A DNA stretch of 64,000 nt from Escherichia coli. Its GTDB lineage: Bacteria; Pseudomonadota; Gammaproteobacteria; Enterobacterales; Enterobacteriaceae. Each line of letters opens with the position of its first letter. Position 1 is the first letter of the stretch. The notes below the pieces were generated by a model, which saw only the letters and a list, made by a program, of their open reading frames with translations, was not told the origin of the DNA and made no database searches. The DNA lies in the NCBI RefSeq assembly GCF_011045215.1, contig NZ_CP049201.1; one strand, given 5' to 3'. Both the position numbers and the translations under genes were made by a program. This document shows positions 38,590 to 47,440 of this stretch, piece after piece.

Positions 38590-38906
38590 GAATTGGAAAG
38601 GAGCTTTCCTTTCAGGCTGCTTTAACTTCGGTAAAATACGTTCTTGAAGCACCAGATAATAAAGTCGGTAATATTGCCACTATTGAGTTTTTCATCAAGG
38701 TTAATTACGAGAATAACCCTTCTGATAAAGCTGAAGTTGAGAAGGTGCTTAATGAATCAGAACTGAAGAATGCTCTTAAGTCCAGAATTCTTGATGATAC
38801 TGTCAGGCAACACAGATGATTAAATCATCTGGATGTATTTAATGCATAAACATTTCTGAATGATACATAAAAATTGTATTTAATGTTTCCCTCCTGGAGA
38901 ATCTCT

Positions 38907-39191
38907 ATGCCCACAGCAGCCAGACTCAGCGATAAAGGCACCCAGCATGACGGTTATTATGAGACCACCATTATTGCAGGCTCCTCCACCGTCTTTATTG
39001 ATGGTATGCCCGCCGCCCGTCAGGGCGATCCGCTGACACCGCATTCCAAACCTGACCATCCCCCTCACCCCCGTAAAATCGCAGGCGGCTCTGCCACTGT
39101 CTTTATTGACGGTAAACCTGCCGCCAGAACCGGCGATGCCATTGACTGTGGCGGCGTGGTTATCGGTGGCGGCACGGTAAATATAGGCTGA
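38907..39191 (+). CDS. PAAR-domain protein (T6SS spike tip)
   Basis: 94-aa protein with PAAR repeats (DGMPAARQGDP, DGKPAARTGDAIDCGG); start placed at the internal Met preceded by GGAGA; immediately upstream of vgrG. Confidence 0.85.
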   Translation: MPTAARLSDKGTQHDGYYETTIIAGSSTVFIDGMPAARQGDPLTPHSKPDHPPHPRKIAGGSATVFIDGKPAARTGDAIDCGGVVIGGGTVNIG

Positions 39192-39211: not shown

Positions 39212-41611
39212 ATGCCCTCAGAAGGATTACGTTTCACGCTGTCGGTGGACGGTATCGTGGAGATGGCGACGGCGGTGGTGAGCTTCCGTCTGTACCAGCA
39301 CCACTGCACGCCGTTCATCCTGGATGTGGATATCGCCAGCGGGCTGTCTGACCTGACGGCGGAGGATTTTCTGGAGAAGAGCGCGGTGCTGACGGTCTGG
39401 CAGGGTGATATCCCGCAGCGTTACGTCAGCGGTATCGTGACGGAGGTGCAACTGGGGGAGAACAACGACTGGCAGATGCGTTATTCCCTGAGCATCAGCC
39501 CGCCGCTGTGGCGGGCAGGGTTACGGCAGAACTTCCGTATCTTCCAGCAGCAGGACATCCAGACGATATCAGCACAGCTTCTGAGAGAGAACGGAGTGAC
39601 GGCATGGATGCCGCTGTTTTATGAAGACCATCCGGCGCGGGAGTTCTGTGTGCAGTACGGGGAAAGCGACCTGGCGTTTCTGGCGCGGCTGTGGGCGGAG
39701 GAGGGGATTTTCTTCTTTGAGCGGTTTGCGGCGGACAGTCCGGAGCAGAAGCTGACGCTGTGCGACGATGTGGCGGGGCTGTCACAGGCGGGAGAGCTTC
39801 CGTTTAACCCGGACACATCGGCAGGAGCGGAGACGGAGTGTCTCAGTACGTTCCGTTATGAGGCGCATGTCCGCCCGTCGTCGGTGCAGAGTCAGGATTA
39901 CACGTTTAAGGTGCCGGACTGGCCGGGGATGTATGAGCAGCAGGGTGAGAACCTGAACGGACAGCTGGCGCAGTACGAGATATTTGATTATCCGGGAAGG
40001 TTCAAGGATGAGCAGCACGGCAAGGATTTCACGCTGTACCAGATGGACAGCCTGCGCAGTGATGCGGAAAAGGCCACAGGGCAGAGTAATTCACCGAAGC
40101 TGTGGCCGGGAACGCGGTTTACGCTGACGGGGCATCCGCAGAAGATGCTGAACCGTGAATGGCAGGTGGTACAGAGCATACTGTCAGGAAGCCAGCCGCA
40201 GGCGCTGCACGGCAGCCAGGGGAGGGGAACCACGCTGGGAAATCAGTTAGAGGTGATACCGGCAGACCGGACGTGGCGTCCACGGCTGCAAAGCAAACCG
40301 AAGGTGGACGGGCCGCAGAGTGCCATTGTGACCGGGCCGAAGGGTGAGGAGATATTCTGCGACGAACATGGCCGGGTACGGGTGAAGTTCCACTGGGACC
40401 GTTATCACGGGATGACGGAGGCGAGTTCATGCTGGGTGCGGGTATCGCAGGCGTGGGCGGGGCCGGGGTTCGGTAACCTGGCGATACCGCGGGTGGGCCA
40501 GGAGGTGATTGTTGACTTCCTGAACGGCGACCCGGACCAGCCCATCGTCACGGGACGGACCTACCATGAAGATAACCGCTCCCCGGGCGACCTGCCGGGA
40601 ACGAAGACGCAGATGACGATACGGTCGAAGACCTATAAAGAAAGCGGATTTAACGAGTTGCGGTTTGAAGACGCCACCAGTAATGAGCAGGTGTATATCC
40701 ACGCGCAGAAGAACATGGATACGGAGGTGCTCAACGACCGGACAACGGATGTGAAGCATGACCATACGGAGACCATTGGTAACGACCAGAAGATAACGGT
40801 GGTGAAGGGGCAGACGGTTGAGGTCGGGACCAGAAAAGAAGGAGGCCACGACCAGAGTATCACGGTGGCGAACGACCGGAGCATAACGGTACGTAACGAC
40901 CAGACGCTGAAGGTGACAAATGACCGGACGGTGAGCGTGAGTCACGATGACGGTCTGTACGTCAGAAATGACCGTAGGGTGACGGTGAAAGGGAAGCAGG
41001 AGCATAAGACGACGGGTAACCACATCAGCCTGGTGGAGGGGAAGCACAGCCTGGAGGTGAAGGGGGACCTGGCGGAGAAGGTGAGTGGCGCGCTGGGGAT
41101 AGAAGTGGACGGGGATATCGTGCTGGAGAGCAGCAGCCGGATAAGCCTGAAGGTGGGTGGCTCGTTTATCGTCATTCAGCCGGGCGGAGTGGATATTGCC
41201 GGGCCGAAGATAAACCTGAACGGTGGGGGCAGTGCGGGGACACCGGTGGGGACGATGCAGCCGGCGGTGCTGGAGGCTCCGGAGGATGAGAGCAGTGATG
41301 ATGGCAGTGATGACTCCGGAGAGGATAGTGGCAATCCCGCAGGGAGTGACGGAGGAGGTGATGGCGGTGACGATGAAGATGATCCTGAAAAATATACCCT
41401 CCAGTTCCATTTTACGGACGATGACGGGATACCGTATTCAGAGACGCAGTATATTGCCTTTTTTGAGGATGGCACACAGACGCGTGGTGAAACAGACAGA
41501 GAGGGATATACAGAAATATTTTATACAGATACAGCACAGGAAATTAAAGTCCAATTGTTATTTTCGGATGCTTTTTATATTGAGCCGGAGGGGCATTATG
41601 GCAGGGAATAA
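39212..41611 (+). CDS. vgrG: Type VI secretion spike protein VgrG (799 aa) with an acidic linker and a small C-terminal extension domain
   Basis: Gp27-like N-terminal region, gp5-like OB-fold and beta-helix (WAGPGFGNLAIPRVGQEVIVDFLNGDPDQPIVTGRTYHEDNR; repeated ...NDRT/ITV... units), then an Asp/Glu/Gly/Ser-rich linker and a roughly 70-aa C-terminal domain. Confidence 0.92.
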   Translation: MPSEGLRFTLSVDGIVEMATAVVSFRLYQHHCTPFILDVDIASGLSDLTAEDFLEKSAVLTVWQGDIPQRYVSGIVTEVQLGENNDWQMRYSLSISPPLWRAGLRQNFRIFQQQDIQTISAQLLRENGVTAWMPLFYEDHPAREFCVQYGESDLAFLARLWAEEGIFFFERFAADSPEQKLTLCDDVAGLSQAGELPFNPDTSAGAETECLSTFRYEAHVRPSSVQSQDYTFKVPDWPGMYEQQGENLNGQLAQYEIFDYPGRFKDEQHGKDFTLYQMDSLRSDAEKATGQSNSPKLWPGTRFTLTGHPQKMLNREWQVVQSILSGSQPQALHGSQGRGTTLGNQLEVIPADRTWRPRLQSKPKVDGPQSAIVTGPKGEEIFCDEHGRVRVKFHWDRYHGMTEASSCWVRVSQAWAGPGFGNLAIPRVGQEVIVDFLNGDPDQPIVTGRTYHEDNRSPGDLPGTKTQMTIRSKTYKESGFNELRFEDATSNEQVYIHAQKNMDTEVLNDRTTDVKHDHTETIGNDQKITVVKGQTVEVGTRKEGGHDQSITVANDRSITVRNDQTLKVTNDRTVSVSHDDGLYVRNDRRVTVKGKQEHKTTGNHISLVEGKHSLEVKGDLAEKVSGALGIEVDGDIVLESSSRISLKVGGSFIVIQPGGVDIAGPKINLNGGGSAGTPVGTMQPAVLEAPEDESSDDGSDDSGEDSGNPAGSDGGGDGGDDEDDPEKYTLQFHFTDDDGIPYSETQYIAFFEDGTQTRGETDREGYTEIFYTDTAQEIKVQLLFSDAFYIEPEGHYGRE

Positions 41612-42401
41612 TAATACTAGTGGGACTTCACAACCCGAGTCGCAAGTATGTGTAGTACCGCAAAAAATTACAAATAAATTTAAAATAATGATGAGTAAGG
41701 CTTGTAAAGCACAGAAAATGGTTTTATTGAAAAGAGCAGATGATATTATGTCATGGGAGGGGGAACAACAACGAGATTTTATTAAAGTTTTTGGCCTTAA
41801 AGGCGAGGACATTATAAAAATCAGAAAGGTTGGGGAAGATACTGGGAAACGAATGCAAGCGAGACTATTCATAATGGATGGCATCAGACAAATAATGACG
41901 ATTGCAAATGGTTTGACGATCGAAAGCTATAAAGATTATACGAACTGCAATGAATTTGCTGCTTTTATTAGTCCACATCTTGATCCTCCTTACATTGTAA
42001 ATATCGGAGCGCATTTTGAATACAGACATGGTATAAAACAGTCGGTTACAGGTAGAGACTCTCATGTAAGTACACTTTGCCATGAAATGTCCCATATATT
42101 TTGGTATTGGGGTGACAATCAAAAAGGTGGTATGTGGACTCAGGATTATACGGGTATTAATAAGTTCGCAACAAGTAATAAGGATGAAGTTAGCTATGAG
42201 AAACATGTTTCAGTGGCTAATGATCTGGTTACATTGCGTAAAGATCAGTTATTTGAGAATGCATATAATGTTGAAAGATATTTTTATATAAAATTAAATG
42301 ATGAAGATATTGAAGCTCAAGATGAGAATATGTTAGCAAAAAAAGTAGAGGATAAAATAAAAGAGATAGAAAAATGTTTTGATGAGTTGATGGGGAAATA
42401 A
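41598..42401 (+). CDS. Putative T6SS effector: uncharacterised protein with an HExxH zinc-metallopeptidase-like motif (267 aa)
   Basis: Start ATG lies within the last 14 nt of vgrG (translational coupling); contains CHEMSHIFWYWGDNQKGGMWTQDYTG (HExxH followed by conserved Asp residues); abrupt drop in GC content relative to vgrG; followed by a secreted-protein gene. Confidence 0.6.
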   Translation: MAGNNNTSGTSQPESQVCVVPQKITNKFKIMMSKACKAQKMVLLKRADDIMSWEGEQQRDFIKVFGLKGEDIIKIRKVGEDTGKRMQARLFIMDGIRQIMTIANGLTIESYKDYTNCNEFAAFISPHLDPPYIVNIGAHFEYRHGIKQSVTGRDSHVSTLCHEMSHIFWYWGDNQKGGMWTQDYTGINKFATSNKDEVSYEKHVSVANDLVTLRKDQLFENAYNVERYFYIKLNDEDIEAQDENMLAKKVEDKIKEIEKCFDELMGK

Positions 42402-42402
42402 G

Positions 42403-43242
42403 ATGAAGAGGTTGGCTTTCTATAATCTAAATTATGTTGTACTGATGGTTTTTTTTCTTTGTTTTTTGCCATTATCTATTGCAATTGCAATAGATAATGA
42501 GAATCTTTTTGTAAAAAAATACAGATTCGGTTTTGAACGAAGAAATGACAATGGGAAACCAATTATTTATCTTAGCCATAATTTAGCGCCAGAGGAAAAT
42601 ATAAGTAATGAATTAACAAATGATGTTGTTGTTAAATTGGTGGTTAAGCCACATGCTGAAAATATTTTAGCTACTATAACTTTTTATAACAGTAGTACTA
42701 AATCGTATTTTCTCCCCAGAATATATTATCCAAAGAACTTCCAAAAAGGAAATGGAGATGTATTTGATGCTTTGTGTGATGACGAATTCTTGATTACATC
42801 AGGAAATATTAGCTTAGACTATCTAGGAGGCTTTTGTCCCTTTGAGCTTGATTTGAATTTGAGCCGATGGGTGGAAATTACGGCAGGTAAAAAAATATCT
42901 TTTGATGTAAAATTGAATGATATGCATTCATTTCTCCCCAGTTTAAATAATTATCATATAAAAACATTAAACTACAAACTTGTTAGGAGAAAATGGTTTG
43001 TATTAAAATCAATTAATGAAACATTCCTCTCTATTTTGATGAAAAGATACTCATGTAATGAATATGATTTTAGAGCTATATCATTTAGTGGAGAGGGATG
43101 TGATAATTATGAATTTGATAAAAATACGTTTTTTTTTGTTAATCAAATATTAGATAAAGATGATGAGCAACATTCTGTTCATATTAGGTCTAATGAATTT
43201 TCCATCAATATCGATGGAAGCTTGGTAAAGCAACCTTATTGA
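42403..43242 (+). CDS. Putative cognate immunity protein (279 aa, N-terminal signal peptide or membrane anchor)
   Basis: Begins 1 nt after the effector stop; hydrophobic N-terminus (VVLMVFFLCFLPLSIAIAI) suggests periplasmic localisation; AT-rich like the effector gene. Confidence 0.5.
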   Translation: MKRLAFYNLNYVVLMVFFLCFLPLSIAIAIDNENLFVKKYRFGFERRNDNGKPIIYLSHNLAPEENISNELTNDVVVKLVVKPHAENILATITFYNSSTKSYFLPRIYYPKNFQKGNGDVFDALCDDEFLITSGNISLDYLGGFCPFELDLNLSRWVEITAGKKISFDVKLNDMHSFLPSLNNYHIKTLNYKLVRRKWFVLKSINETFLSILMKRYSCNEYDFRAISFSGEGCDNYEFDKNTFFFVNQILDKDDEQHSVHIRSNEFSINIDGSLVKQPY

Positions 43243-43304
43243 TTAAAATGTATCGCAGGTTTTATTTTCTGTAATGCTGGTGCATGTGCGTAAATATTTC
43301 TTAA

Positions 43305-43730
43305 GAGCCGGAAACACCTCTTCCGCCTTTATCGACGATAAACCTACCGCCAGAACCGGTGATGCCATTGACTGCGGTGGCGTGGTTAAAGGTGGAGGGC
43401 GATGTGGTGCTGGAGAGCAGCAGCCGGATAAGCCTGAAGGTGGGCGGCTCGTTTGTGGTCATCCATTCAGGGGGCGTGGACATCGTCGGGCCGAAAATCA
43501 ATCTCAATAGCGGCGGTAGTCCGGGAACGCCGGTGCCGACGCTGCAACCGGCGGTTCTGAAAGCGCTGGCAGATGATAAAAGTTTAGCGGCTGAGCAAAA
43601 TGATAGTAATGCATCGTCCGATCAGAATGATAACAACGATGAGGGTGAGGAAGCGCCAGAAAAATCGGTGTGTAAGGAGTGCCTGAAAAGGGCGCAAGAA
43701 GCCGCCGCCGTTTTTGCGCCTCGTGGATAA
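43305..43730 (+). pseudogene. PAAR-vgrG deletion-fusion remnant (3' end of a PAAR gene joined to the 3' end of a second vgrG)
   Basis: 43309..43392 closely matches the PAAR 3' end at 39092..39175 (...FIDDKPTARTGDAIDCGGVV...); from about 43393 the sequence matches vgrG at about 41110..41245 (VLESSSRISLKVGGSF.V.....GGVDI.GPKINLN.GG) and then continues into a different C-terminal tail. Confidence 0.8.
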
Positions 43731-43736
43731 GGGAGA

Positions 43737-44506
43737 ATGACAATGATAACAGTATCGCCACACGCTACCGATCAAGACAAATATATTATCTGGCTGAAGC
43801 AAGCTGAATCATTCTGTTCTGCCGCTGGTTTGGATTACATAGATGTGCTTGTTGACCAGGCTGGAACCGACCAACCTTTGCAAAATGATATGCTTCATCT
43901 GTCGCCAGCCATTCACTGGTATGCCCTGTTTGAAGGAACGCCTGAAGCTGAGACGATGGAGTATTCCCCTGTAGTGTTACGCCTGTACTTTGCGCTCAGT
44001 AGCCATCGCAAATTTCTGGCACAACTGATGGCGTCATTTGCTGATACGCCGCGTCTTACTTTGTTGATATCCCCTCTTACATTCGACCTGCTGGGCGGCA
44101 TCTTCAGGTATTGTCACAGGTTCAGTGGGAAGAACAGACCGGATTGCTGCGTTACTATGATAATCGGGTGTTCCCTTTACTGTTCACACATGTTTTGACT
44201 AACGAGCAGCAGGCGACATTTACTGATATTGCGTTGTTCTGGAGCTGGTTAGACCGTGATGGTGAGATTAACTGGAAATCAGGAAGTTTTTCACCAGAAC
44301 GCAGGCTTACTGACAACCCGGAGATGAATCGGGTGGATGATGTACAGGTGGGATTGATGGGCTGTATCTGCGACGCTGAAGTCCTGATGAAGGAGAAAGC
44401 AGTCAGTGAACTCAGTCAGGAAAGCTATTTTGCCCACTGTCTTGATATTGCTTTCAGGGCCAATGACGCGAAATATTTCGGAGCTTTGCGGGACTTCGAA
44501 GGATAA
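43737..44506 (+). pseudogene. T6SS adaptor/chaperone-like gene (DUF4123-type, Tap/Tec family), split across two overlapping reading frames
   Basis: Two overlapping ORFs (43737..44198 and 44111..44506) together span about 256 codons, in the adaptor position between a vgrG 3' end and a DUF2235 effector gene; family assignment is by position and recalled sequence character. Confidence 0.5.
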
Positions 44507-44819: not shown

Positions 44820-45362
44820 ATGTCCAGCAAAATAAGAAATGGAATGAATATAACAAAAGTAGTTAAAGGCTGTCTGGTATTAATTTTGATGGTGATTTCT
44901 GGTTGCTCAGCAGATAATTACGACGATTATACTGCAGGTGATCTCCGGGCAATAAATCATATTAAAGGTATCAGTATTAATTGGTTCACCGTAAATGGTT
45001 ATCGGGTCCATGGTTTGGGCGGTGGATATTGCTGCATAATGTTACCAAAGAAGTGGCATTCTGGATTAAAAGCCCGGATCGAGTGGGAAGTAGACCCGAC
45101 CCCCCTTGAACCTATTGCAATGAAAAAAGAAGGTTTTGGCTATGAAGAAGATGCTTATGCTAAACATGCTGCAAATTATCAAAAATATAAAGTAATTGTT
45201 GACATCCCGGAATACGGCGCTGAACGTTGTGGCCTGACCGTTCATTTTCTGCCGTGTAATCAGATTAAAGTGACAACCGTCTGCGAGGGCTATGGCACAC
45301 CGAATTATCCTATCAAAGAACCCCGCGAGATGAAGGAACCTGCAACATGTCCAGCAAAATAA
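44820..45362 (+). CDS. Lipoprotein (180 aa), candidate Tle1-associated immunity or accessory protein (DUF3304-like)
   Basis: Signal peptide with lipobox (LILMVISGCSADN); directly upstream of and overlapping the Tle1-like gene. Confidence 0.55.
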   Translation: MSSKIRNGMNITKVVKGCLVLILMVISGCSADNYDDYTAGDLRAINHIKGISINWFTVNGYRVHGLGGGYCCIMLPKKWHSGLKARIEWEVDPTPLEPIAMKKEGFGYEEDAYAKHAANYQKYKVIVDIPEYGAERCGLTVHFLPCNQIKVTTVCEGYGTPNYPIKEPREMKEPATCPAK

Positions 45363-47440
45363 GTGGTCTGGCTTTTCCGTGTTATGCCCCCCCGGTGTTC
45401 CCTGAAGATGGGCGATTAATATTATCTGAAGCGCAGGTAAACGCGAACTACCTAAAACAAATCAATAAAACAGAAGAGCACAAAACCAACTGTAGTAAAC
45501 AGGCTGGATTTAGAATTGGCTTTACGTGTAATCAAAGTATGCATATTAGTCTGTTTTTTGATGGTACAAATAATAATGAATATAATGACACTCCTGGACA
45601 CCCAACCAATATTGCCAAACTGTTTCATACGACCTATCAGAACGCAGAAGAACAGGGATATTTTAACTACTATATACCGGGTGTAGGCACACCATTTCCC
45701 AAGATAGGTGAAATGGATTACAGCAACAGCGGGCTGGAGTTCGCTACTGGTGGTGAAGATCGAATTAATTGGGCATTATTACGCCTCGTGGATGCCCTGA
45801 GCTATTCCATTGACCCTTCCCATAAGCGACTGGATGATAATGTGGCAAAAGAGCACATTCCTCTTATGCGCGCTCCCTGGCCTATGACTGGTGAAGTGAA
45901 TCGTCGCAATGTGATTAACCCCTACCTGGAAAAATTACAGGGACTGTTAGAGCAAGCCAGTCCGCGCCTGCTAAACGTAAAGCTGTTTATCTACGGATTT
46001 TCCCGTGGCGCAGCGGAAGCACGAACTTTTGTTAACTGGTTGACTCAGTTAGCTTGCCCGCAGGAGCAACAGGTGATGCTGGCCGGGTTAGCTGTCAGTA
46101 TTGAGTTTTTGGGGCTGCTGGATACCGTAGCTTCTGTGGGGGCGGCGCATGTTTTACCGGGCGCTGCCGGTCATATGGGATGGGCCGATAGTACTCAGCA
46201 ACTCCCTGATGAGAGGCAGTTTCCCGGCCTGATTAAATGCTGCCGCCACTTCGTTGCCGCGCATGAGCAGCGGCTGTGCTTTCCGCTGGATTCAATCCGT
46301 CGTCCAGACGGAAATTATCCTTTAAATGCAGAGGAAATTATCTATCCGGGGATGCACTCTGATGTCGGTGGTGGCTATCCCGTTCGCGATCAGGGGAAGT
46401 CCTGTGGTGACTCAGGCGAAATTCTTTCTCAGATAGCACTGCATGATATGTATCTTGCTGCATTTGATTCAGGAGCACCACTTGCTGTTTATTCTAAATT
46501 TGTTACTCCATTAATAAAAGGTGTGTCGCCTCTGCGAATTATGAGTCCTTCTAGCGTAAAGGAATTTACGATTGCTAATTCATTAACAAAACGCTTCAAC
46601 ATCTGGCGACAAACGCTGCTGAACACCACCTTGCAGGGTACAGAAGAAATGATTGATACGAGGGAAGGTTATCACTCCTATCAACTTGCCCAGGTTCTTG
46701 AAAGCGCAATTAGCGATCAGATCGGCTGGATCACCGCCTGGCGTATCGGTCGCTATGCGAATAACAGCCTTCTTGTGCAACCTTTTTATATTAAGGCGCC
46801 ACAGCTGGATAAAGATGGACTTGATAAAGAGGCTAAAGCGCGTAAAGAACAAATGGAAAATATTGAAAAAGAGCGGGCGAACAAGCAGAAAGGGAATGGC
46901 ACACTTGATGAAAGTAATCAGGGCATTCCTATCCTTGACCCAACCAATGCTCAGTATCAGTTGCGAGAGGCAGCCCGAGAATTTCAGAGCGATTATAAAG
47001 GATGGACGCGCGATATTAACGGCAGCGTCATGGAGAAAGCCATTCAGATTCTTGTGGATGTCATTCCTAAATATCCGGTGTATCTGATTAATGGCGATGA
47101 TGAAGCAAAAGAATATCAGCAAATTAAGGCTATGGGAGACGGACTCTATCCACAATTTTTTATTGATTCACTGGGAACGGGAACGCGTACTCAGCCATGC
47201 GCTGAATTACTGGCCCTCTATGATGACCAGGTTCACGACTCCCGCGCCTGGTTTATGCAAAGTTCGCTGGGTGGACGTGAACCCTGGGGCGGTTATTTTC
47301 GCTACCGCATGATTTACTTCGGTGATGAGGCTAATAAAGAGCTGAAGCTAATCTCTGCAGATGGCAAAGTTGTTGGCGATCAGCCCACATCCAACCGGGT
47401 CATTTATTGGATGGAATCGAAAACGGTGAGCCGAGGTTAA
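45347..47440 (+). CDS. Tle1-family T6SS phospholipase effector (DUF2235 alpha/beta-hydrolase, 697 aa)
   Basis: DUF2235 hallmark ISLFFDGTNNNEYND...; nucleophile elbow GxSxG (IYGFSRGAAEAR); vgrG-adaptor-effector gene order. Confidence 0.75.
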   Translation: MSSKISGLAFPCYAPPVFPEDGRLILSEAQVNANYLKQINKTEEHKTNCSKQAGFRIGFTCNQSMHISLFFDGTNNNEYNDTPGHPTNIAKLFHTTYQNAEEQGYFNYYIPGVGTPFPKIGEMDYSNSGLEFATGGEDRINWALLRLVDALSYSIDPSHKRLDDNVAKEHIPLMRAPWPMTGEVNRRNVINPYLEKLQGLLEQASPRLLNVKLFIYGFSRGAAEARTFVNWLTQLACPQEQQVMLAGLAVSIEFLGLLDTVASVGAAHVLPGAAGHMGWADSTQQLPDERQFPGLIKCCRHFVAAHEQRLCFPLDSIRRPDGNYPLNAEEIIYPGMHSDVGGGYPVRDQGKSCGDSGEILSQIALHDMYLAAFDSGAPLAVYSKFVTPLIKGVSPLRIMSPSSVKEFTIANSLTKRFNIWRQTLLNTTLQGTEEMIDTREGYHSYQLAQVLESAISDQIGWITAWRIGRYANNSLLVQPFYIKAPQLDKDGLDKEAKARKEQMENIEKERANKQKGNGTLDESNQGIPILDPTNAQYQLREAAREFQSDYKGWTRDINGSVMEKAIQILVDVIPKYPVYLINGDDEAKEYQQIKAMGDGLYPQFFIDSLGTGTRTQPCAELLALYDDQVHDSRAWFMQSSLGGREPWGGYFRYRMIYFGDEANKELKLISADGKVVGDQPTSNRVIYWMESKTVSRG

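Follow-up and report, generated by a model that had tools for sequence, protein, structure and literature searches.

The use of a transthyretin-like (TTR) domain at the C-terminus of VgrG as an internal adaptor, with tail swaps redirecting the cargo, has already been published for EAEC, P. aeruginosa and A. baumannii. In the account of EAEC VgrG1 summarised in PMC10715212 (Flaugnatti et al. 2016, 2020; structures 6SJL/6SK0), the TTR domain sits on a flexible linker and engages the Tle1 N-terminal strand through fold complementation. P. aeruginosa VgrG2b (PA0262; 6H56) is an evolved VgrG of the order VgrG-DUF2345-TTR-metallopeptidase, whose HExxH zinc peptidase acts in the periplasm and is followed by a gene for periplasmic immunity (PMC6899460). 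In strain BL21 of P. aeruginosa the gene is naturally split right behind the TTR (PMC6899460). In the same species VgrG4b/PldA and VgrG5/PldB represent paralogous VgrGs whose bodies are conserved but whose TTR tails diverge and determine the cognate cargo, and exchanging these tails redirects PldA and PldB (PMC6684961); this is the same experiment as the tail swap proposed in a preliminary description of the locus reported here. For A. baumannii VgrG17 and Tae17, the TTR-like sandwich and the residues following it have been modelled as strands threaded edge-to-edge onto the effector N-terminal region, with the negative VgrG C-terminus meeting the positive effector N-terminus (PMC11796386). Other VgrG tails depend on separate adaptors of the DUF4123 Tap/Tec/Tla1 class, such as A. 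tumefaciens VgrG1-Tap1-Tde1 as cited in PMC6684961.

Here we describe a VgrG tail that we read as a real but essentially ordinary example of the internal adaptor mechanism. It lies in a stretch of 64,000 nt from Escherichia coli (contig NZ_CP049201.1, assembly GCF_011045215.1), hereafter the window, within the following module:

38874..39191, plus strand, PAAR protein gene (VgrG tip cap; Pfam PAAR_motif, 2.2e-21)
39212..41611, plus strand, vgrG (tssI), 799 aa, with gp27-like base, OB fold and gp5-like beta-helix (Pfam and NCBIfam matches)
41276..41389, plus strand, acidic Gly/Ser/Asp/Glu linker, VgrG residues 689-726 (composition), read as a flexible tether and a recombination/composition junction
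41390..41563, plus strand, TTR beta-sandwich, residues ~727-784, putative effector dock (profile homology, predicted fold)
41564..41608, plus strand, C-terminal 15-residue peptide SDAFYIEPEGHYGRE (low-confidence pLDDT, 59-66)
41598..42401, plus strand, M35-like (aspzincin) zinc metallopeptidase, putative cargo effector, 267 aa (HEMSH at residues 162-166; family profile)
42403..43242, plus strand, putative immunity protein, 279 aa, with a hydrophobic signal-like N-terminus (position)

The product of 39212..41611 is a VgrG by both Pfam (Phage_GPD, 1.5e-76; Phage_base_V; Gp5_trimer_C) and NCBIfam (TIGR03361, 2.4e-179), and its PDB sequence matches include VgrG1 of P. aeruginosa among others. Pfam places only Gp5_trimer_C and Gp5_C at the beta-helix region, with neither DUF2345 (PF10106) nor T6SS_Vgr (PF13296) in the protein, and this VgrG thus falls outside the DUF2345-containing class of EAEC VgrG1-type internal adaptors. 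In EAEC Sci-1 VgrG1, by contrast, a DUF2345 helix extension precedes the TTR, and DUF2345 and the helix sides also help binding. Moreover, the linker here is long and strongly acidic, and the cargo is an M35-like peptidase rather than the Tle1 lipase. No catalytic or toxin domain was found within the VgrG polypeptide: the C-terminal extension consists of linker and TTR alone and the HExxH motif lies in a separate ORF in another frame, so that this is not an evolved (specialised) VgrG with a fused toxin domain. The locus resembles VgrG2b in that a TTR is followed by an HExxH zinc peptidase, although the peptidase is covalently fused in VgrG2b and is encoded by a separate overlapping gene in the window. 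VgrG4b and VgrG5 differ in that their cargos are Tle5 phospholipases D, the swapped tails are longer, at about 170-190 residues, and lack an acidic linker. A likeness to VgrG17/Tae17, for which G1069 and W1075 are key residues, may be drawn by analogy; Tae17 hydrolyses peptidoglycan and carries Ig-like and LysM docking domains. The ORF list and Pfam revealed no DUF4123, DUF1795 or DUF2169 adaptor gene between vgrG and the M35 gene. By analogy with the described systems, we consider it likely that the tail is an internal adaptor, a built-in TTR-type dock for the M35-like peptidase. This would probably explain how a toxin widespread in E. coli is mounted on the spike. It leaves current understanding of T6SS effector loading unchanged, and adds a further cargo class, and VgrGs lacking DUF2345, to its range.

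The preliminary description had placed the tail at 41120-41611. The variable tail is real, but a start at 41120 is too early by about 52 codons and falls inside the conserved end of the beta-helix; the segment beginning there (..VLESSSRISLKVGGSF..GPKINLNGGGS.GTPV..QPAVL) is ~85% identical at the DNA level to a remnant vgrG further downstream and lies outside the variable tail. The two peptide strings quoted for the tail match VgrG exactly, the linker string at residues 691-728 (nt 41282-41395) and the domain string at residues 729-784 (nt 41396-41563). A strongly acidic Gly/Ser/Asp/Glu linker does follow the beta-helix, as claimed: its 38 residues (APEDESS...DDPE) carry a net charge of -17 and are 84% D/E/G/S, against 30% in the VgrG body, a composition far from chance. 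Homologues keep this composition but neither the sequence nor the length of the linker, and indels between alleles are located in it. GC3 drops inside the linker, from 0.65-0.95 to 0.45 or from 0.70-0.95 to 0.2-0.45; a search for a tandem repeat beneath it found none. The small domain beyond the linker is also present, with a folded part of ~56-60 aa and not the ~70 aa proposed.

By profile homology this domain is of TTR type, of the kind known to hold a toxin on the spike. As a single sequence the tail matched nothing among PDB sequences, Pfam or NCBIfam, and profiles were required. An hmmsearch with a profile of 78 tails (alignment A4) recovered the VgrG2b TTR (6H56, residues 9-66) as the best sequence-profile match, at E 1e-10, and the EAEC VgrG1 TTR (6SJL, residues 781-832) at E 4.4e-10. 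Structure prediction, which the preliminary description had suggested, gave a confident small beta-sandwich superposing on the EAEC VgrG1 TTR; an earlier AF2 run with 12 close relatives (pLDDT 65.8) was set aside. The domain occupies the extreme VgrG C-terminus past the beta-helix (residues ~727-784 of 799) and is strongly conserved: 18 alignment columns are invariant among close relatives, and there are 183 homologues. Out of these 183 matches at E<=1e-3 we inspected 84 single-stretch homologues, and in all but two, which have tandem copies, the domain ends at most ~20 residues from the protein end. The full-length homologues checked (n=8) are VgrGs, some of the Gp5_trimer_C and some of the DUF2345 type, DUF2345 being present in some distant TTR-tailed VgrGs. 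The 15-residue peptide that follows the domain is probably disordered, judging from the prediction, and its variants FANDDFLSMEGHYGR, TNDYYIFEVNCNEHQ, NQNIDMILGGVHE and HQSIDMIEGGVYE each go with their own M35 subfamily. Weaker matches of the tail profile were to CarboxypepD_reg/SpaA prealbumin-like repeats. Since envelope binding is common among prealbumin-like and CarboxypepD_reg domains, a TTR that binds the envelope of target or producer (glycan, peptidoglycan) instead of the effector, and that aids adhesion or penetration, can be envisaged; we regard this as extremely unlikely.

The gene downstream of vgrG encodes the putative cargo. Aspzincin_M35 (PF14521) matches the window peptidase at a sub-threshold 20.5 bits (cut-off 30), while many of its relatives match PF14521, some above threshold (e.g. 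L006, 43 bits). In an alignment with these relatives the window peptidase has both HEMSH and the invariant Asp183. Moreover, an effector profile matches 2x3a and 1g12, both of them M35 structures, with E-values of 1.5e-3 to 3.6e-3, and RefSeq names the product 'peptidase M35'; the single sequence gave no match above threshold against PDB sequences, Pfam or NCBIfam. In profile searches the effector was not detected as a relative of the VgrG2b peptidase: effector profiles did not match 6H56. The VgrG2b peptidase is of DUF4157 type (PMC6899460) and was not recovered by the M35-like profile. The 279-aa gene lies directly after the effector in all loci; its product has no Pfam family, and its position makes it a putative immunity gene.

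vgrG and the M35-like gene overlap by 14 nt around the vgrG stop, which suggests translational coupling, with the effector made beside its dock. We weighed a programmed frameshift joining VgrG to M35 and discarded it, as overlaps and frames vary by locus (14, 11, 8, 1 and -1 nt) and there is no evident slippery site. Megablast matches extending to query position 2546 had raised the suspicion that the first ~50 M35 codons are specially conserved with the tail; this was also rejected, the sliding-window identity of 63-75% being like that of the remaining gene. The same overlap suggests co-translation and would suit a tail that acts chiefly as an intracellular inhibitor or chaperone, keeping the peptidase inactive and stable until firing, with docking secondary. 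There is precedent in the stabilisation of PldA and PldB by their TTR tails (PMC6684961) and, on the summary in PMC10715212, in the inhibition of EAEC Tle1 activity by VgrG binding. However, such a role is compatible with docking and does not exclude it, and a VgrG-linked E. coli M35-like peptidase was toxic only if directed to the periplasm (PMC7904677), so that in the one available test the family was harmless in the cytoplasm and inhibition would be less needed. We consider a chiefly inhibitory tail very unlikely.

As the preliminary description had it, tail identity co-varies with the downstream effector, and this holds in E. coli loci, in 66 of 68 genomes with a second tail type (below) and in 83 metagenomic loci. 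An M35-like peptidase lies downstream of the TTR tail in every E. coli locus inspected. The tail occurs in 659/5426 E. coli genomes, and in 488 the tail and this M35 type fall within one match; a Nissle-type tail variant is paired with its own 200-aa M35. The pairing extends to Escherichia sp., Trabulsiella and metagenomes (a related-locus search with tail alignment A2 gave 3 loci). Among the 83 metagenomic loci, seven tail subtypes correspond to seven cargo (sub)families with 0 discordant, and more distant TTR tails are followed immediately by other cargos, e.g. Ntox44 and unknown families. Comparison of alleles shows >90% identity dropping to 50-67% once the second half of the TTR is reached, with no recovery across the effector and immunity genes. 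Together with the GC3 break, this identity break inside the tail indicates that the TTR domain moves with the effector cassette. The dock thus belongs genetically to the cargo cassette and not to the spike gene.

These data also bear on whether the tail might be a passive spacer or a relic, surviving from an evolved, toxin-fused VgrG or serving as a mere cap, with M35 loaded some other way, for example via Hcp, PAAR or the sides of the helix. The tail profile does after all match best the TTR of VgrG2b, with a metallopeptidase fused behind it, and the BL21 split shows gene fission at exactly this point. Moreover, a search of 71 M35-like relatives for a VgrG-TTR-M35 ('Rosetta stone') fusion found none but did reveal a PAAR-M35 fusion (P0230), showing that this toxin family rides the spike tip, which counts for the internal adaptor as well. 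However, a relic would be expected to decay or uncouple, and therefore the strong conservation, the confident predicted fold and the tracking of cargo subtype by tail subtype without exception all count against it. The absence of the VgrG-TTR-M35 fusion, and the failure to detect the VgrG2b peptidase as an M35-like relative, argue in the same direction. On balance a relic is unlikely.

A second tail type is found immediately downstream in the window:

43274..43730, plus strand, remnant: PAAR-gene 3' fragment and the last ~110 codons of a second vgrG, fused out of frame (ORFs, alignment)
43737..44506, plus strand, DUF4123 adaptor (Tla1, Tle1 chaperone), frameshifted here (Pfam DUF4123 on both halves)
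44820..45362, plus strand, DUF3304 protein (Pfam DUF3304, 2e-24)
45347..47440, plus strand, Tle1-family phospholipase effector, cargo of the remnant vgrG's tail (Pfam T6SS_Tle1-like_C, 6.7e-59; T6SS_Tle1-like_cat, 1.4e-25)

The remnant vgrG had been noted before with a start at 43393; its frame in fact runs from 43359, with the fused PAAR 3' fragment ahead from 43274. Its tail, an acidic/polar linker plus SVCKECLKRAQEAAAVFAPRG, is completely different, as had been stated, and unrelated beyond the common ..QPAVL segment. E. coli JX21CE8 is annotated with this same remnant. Against the intact DUF4123 gene of that strain the window copy has a 1-nt deletion after 44092; RefSeq calls the adaptor 'toxin Tle1 chaperone Tla1'. 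Most of the 68 genomes have a full-length vgrG with the remnant-type tail, which lies upstream of the DUF4123 adaptor (Tla1) and Tle1 in 66/68. The remnant therefore fits the DUF4123 adaptor class in its short variable C-terminal tail, DUF4123 gene and effector, a mechanism that differs from that of the TTR tail, which has no adaptor gene. Unlike EAEC VgrG1-Tle1, the Tle1 relative in the window has a different tail and a DUF4123 adaptor. The two tails form a natural specificity pair, in which one VgrG body ends in a TTR tail for direct docking in the first case and in a short tail that requires a DUF4123 adaptor in the second.

Returning to the internal adaptor, we infer a docking arrangement modelled on EAEC VgrG1-Tle1 and A. 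baumannii VgrG17-Tae17, from which physical binding of the tail to the HExxH protein and its geometry are extrapolated. The PAAR protein encoded upstream would cap the blunt end of the gp5-like beta-helix, past which each of the three VgrG chains would continue as a ~38-residue disordered acidic tether, a ~58-residue TTR and a short floppy peptide. The tether would allow the TTR-effector unit to fold back along the side of the spike, and up to three effector copies could be fired with it into a neighbouring bacterium. The peptidase would be expected to act in the target periplasm, and the signal-peptide-like product of the next gene to provide self-immunity. In the M35 system of E. coli PAR (AKO63_2953-2955), possibly another locus type, a separate 'DUF2345' protein was reported necessary as a VgrG-M35 bridge (PMC10673891). 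The EAEC Tle1 N-terminus has no obvious sequence similarity to the M35 N-terminus, and thus the contact mode between TTR and M35 N-terminus is transferred by analogy only.

The cargoes of this TTR-tail clade, although from unrelated families, may share a short N-terminal docking signal, with the acidic linker acting as tether and as preferred crossover for cassettes of TTR, effector and immunity gene; we put this forward tentatively and consider it doubtful. The signal may comprise a polar Asn/Thr/Ser/Gly-rich leader followed by a strand-like ~[QK][QK]-I-[TS] that completes the TTR sandwich, and the cargoes concerned may be the M35-like peptidases, one family of 264-303 aa, one protein of 318 aa and perhaps further ones. 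The window effector has QKIT at residues 22-25, and no QKIT-like motif is present in the EAEC Tle1 N-terminus, the known TTR ligand. The motif, defined post hoc, occurs in 3/8 independent cargo families against <=2.8% of background N-termini (binomial p ~1e-3), a modest excess that makes the shared motif a weak, sequence-derived lead. If true, it would be a portable tag by which the cargo of TTR-type spikes becomes predictable and engineerable.

Lastly, an IS3 lies upstream of the island in the window and T6SS core genes are not adjacent to it, so that this strain may not fire the module. The gene order PAAR-VgrG-M35 is also found in E. coli 042, Nissle 1917 and PAR, the last having its PAAR-VgrG(TTR)-M35 island at yncG. 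The PAAR-VgrG-M35-immunity module is present in about 12% of complete E. coli genomes, including EAEC 042, Nissle 1917 and ATCC 25922.

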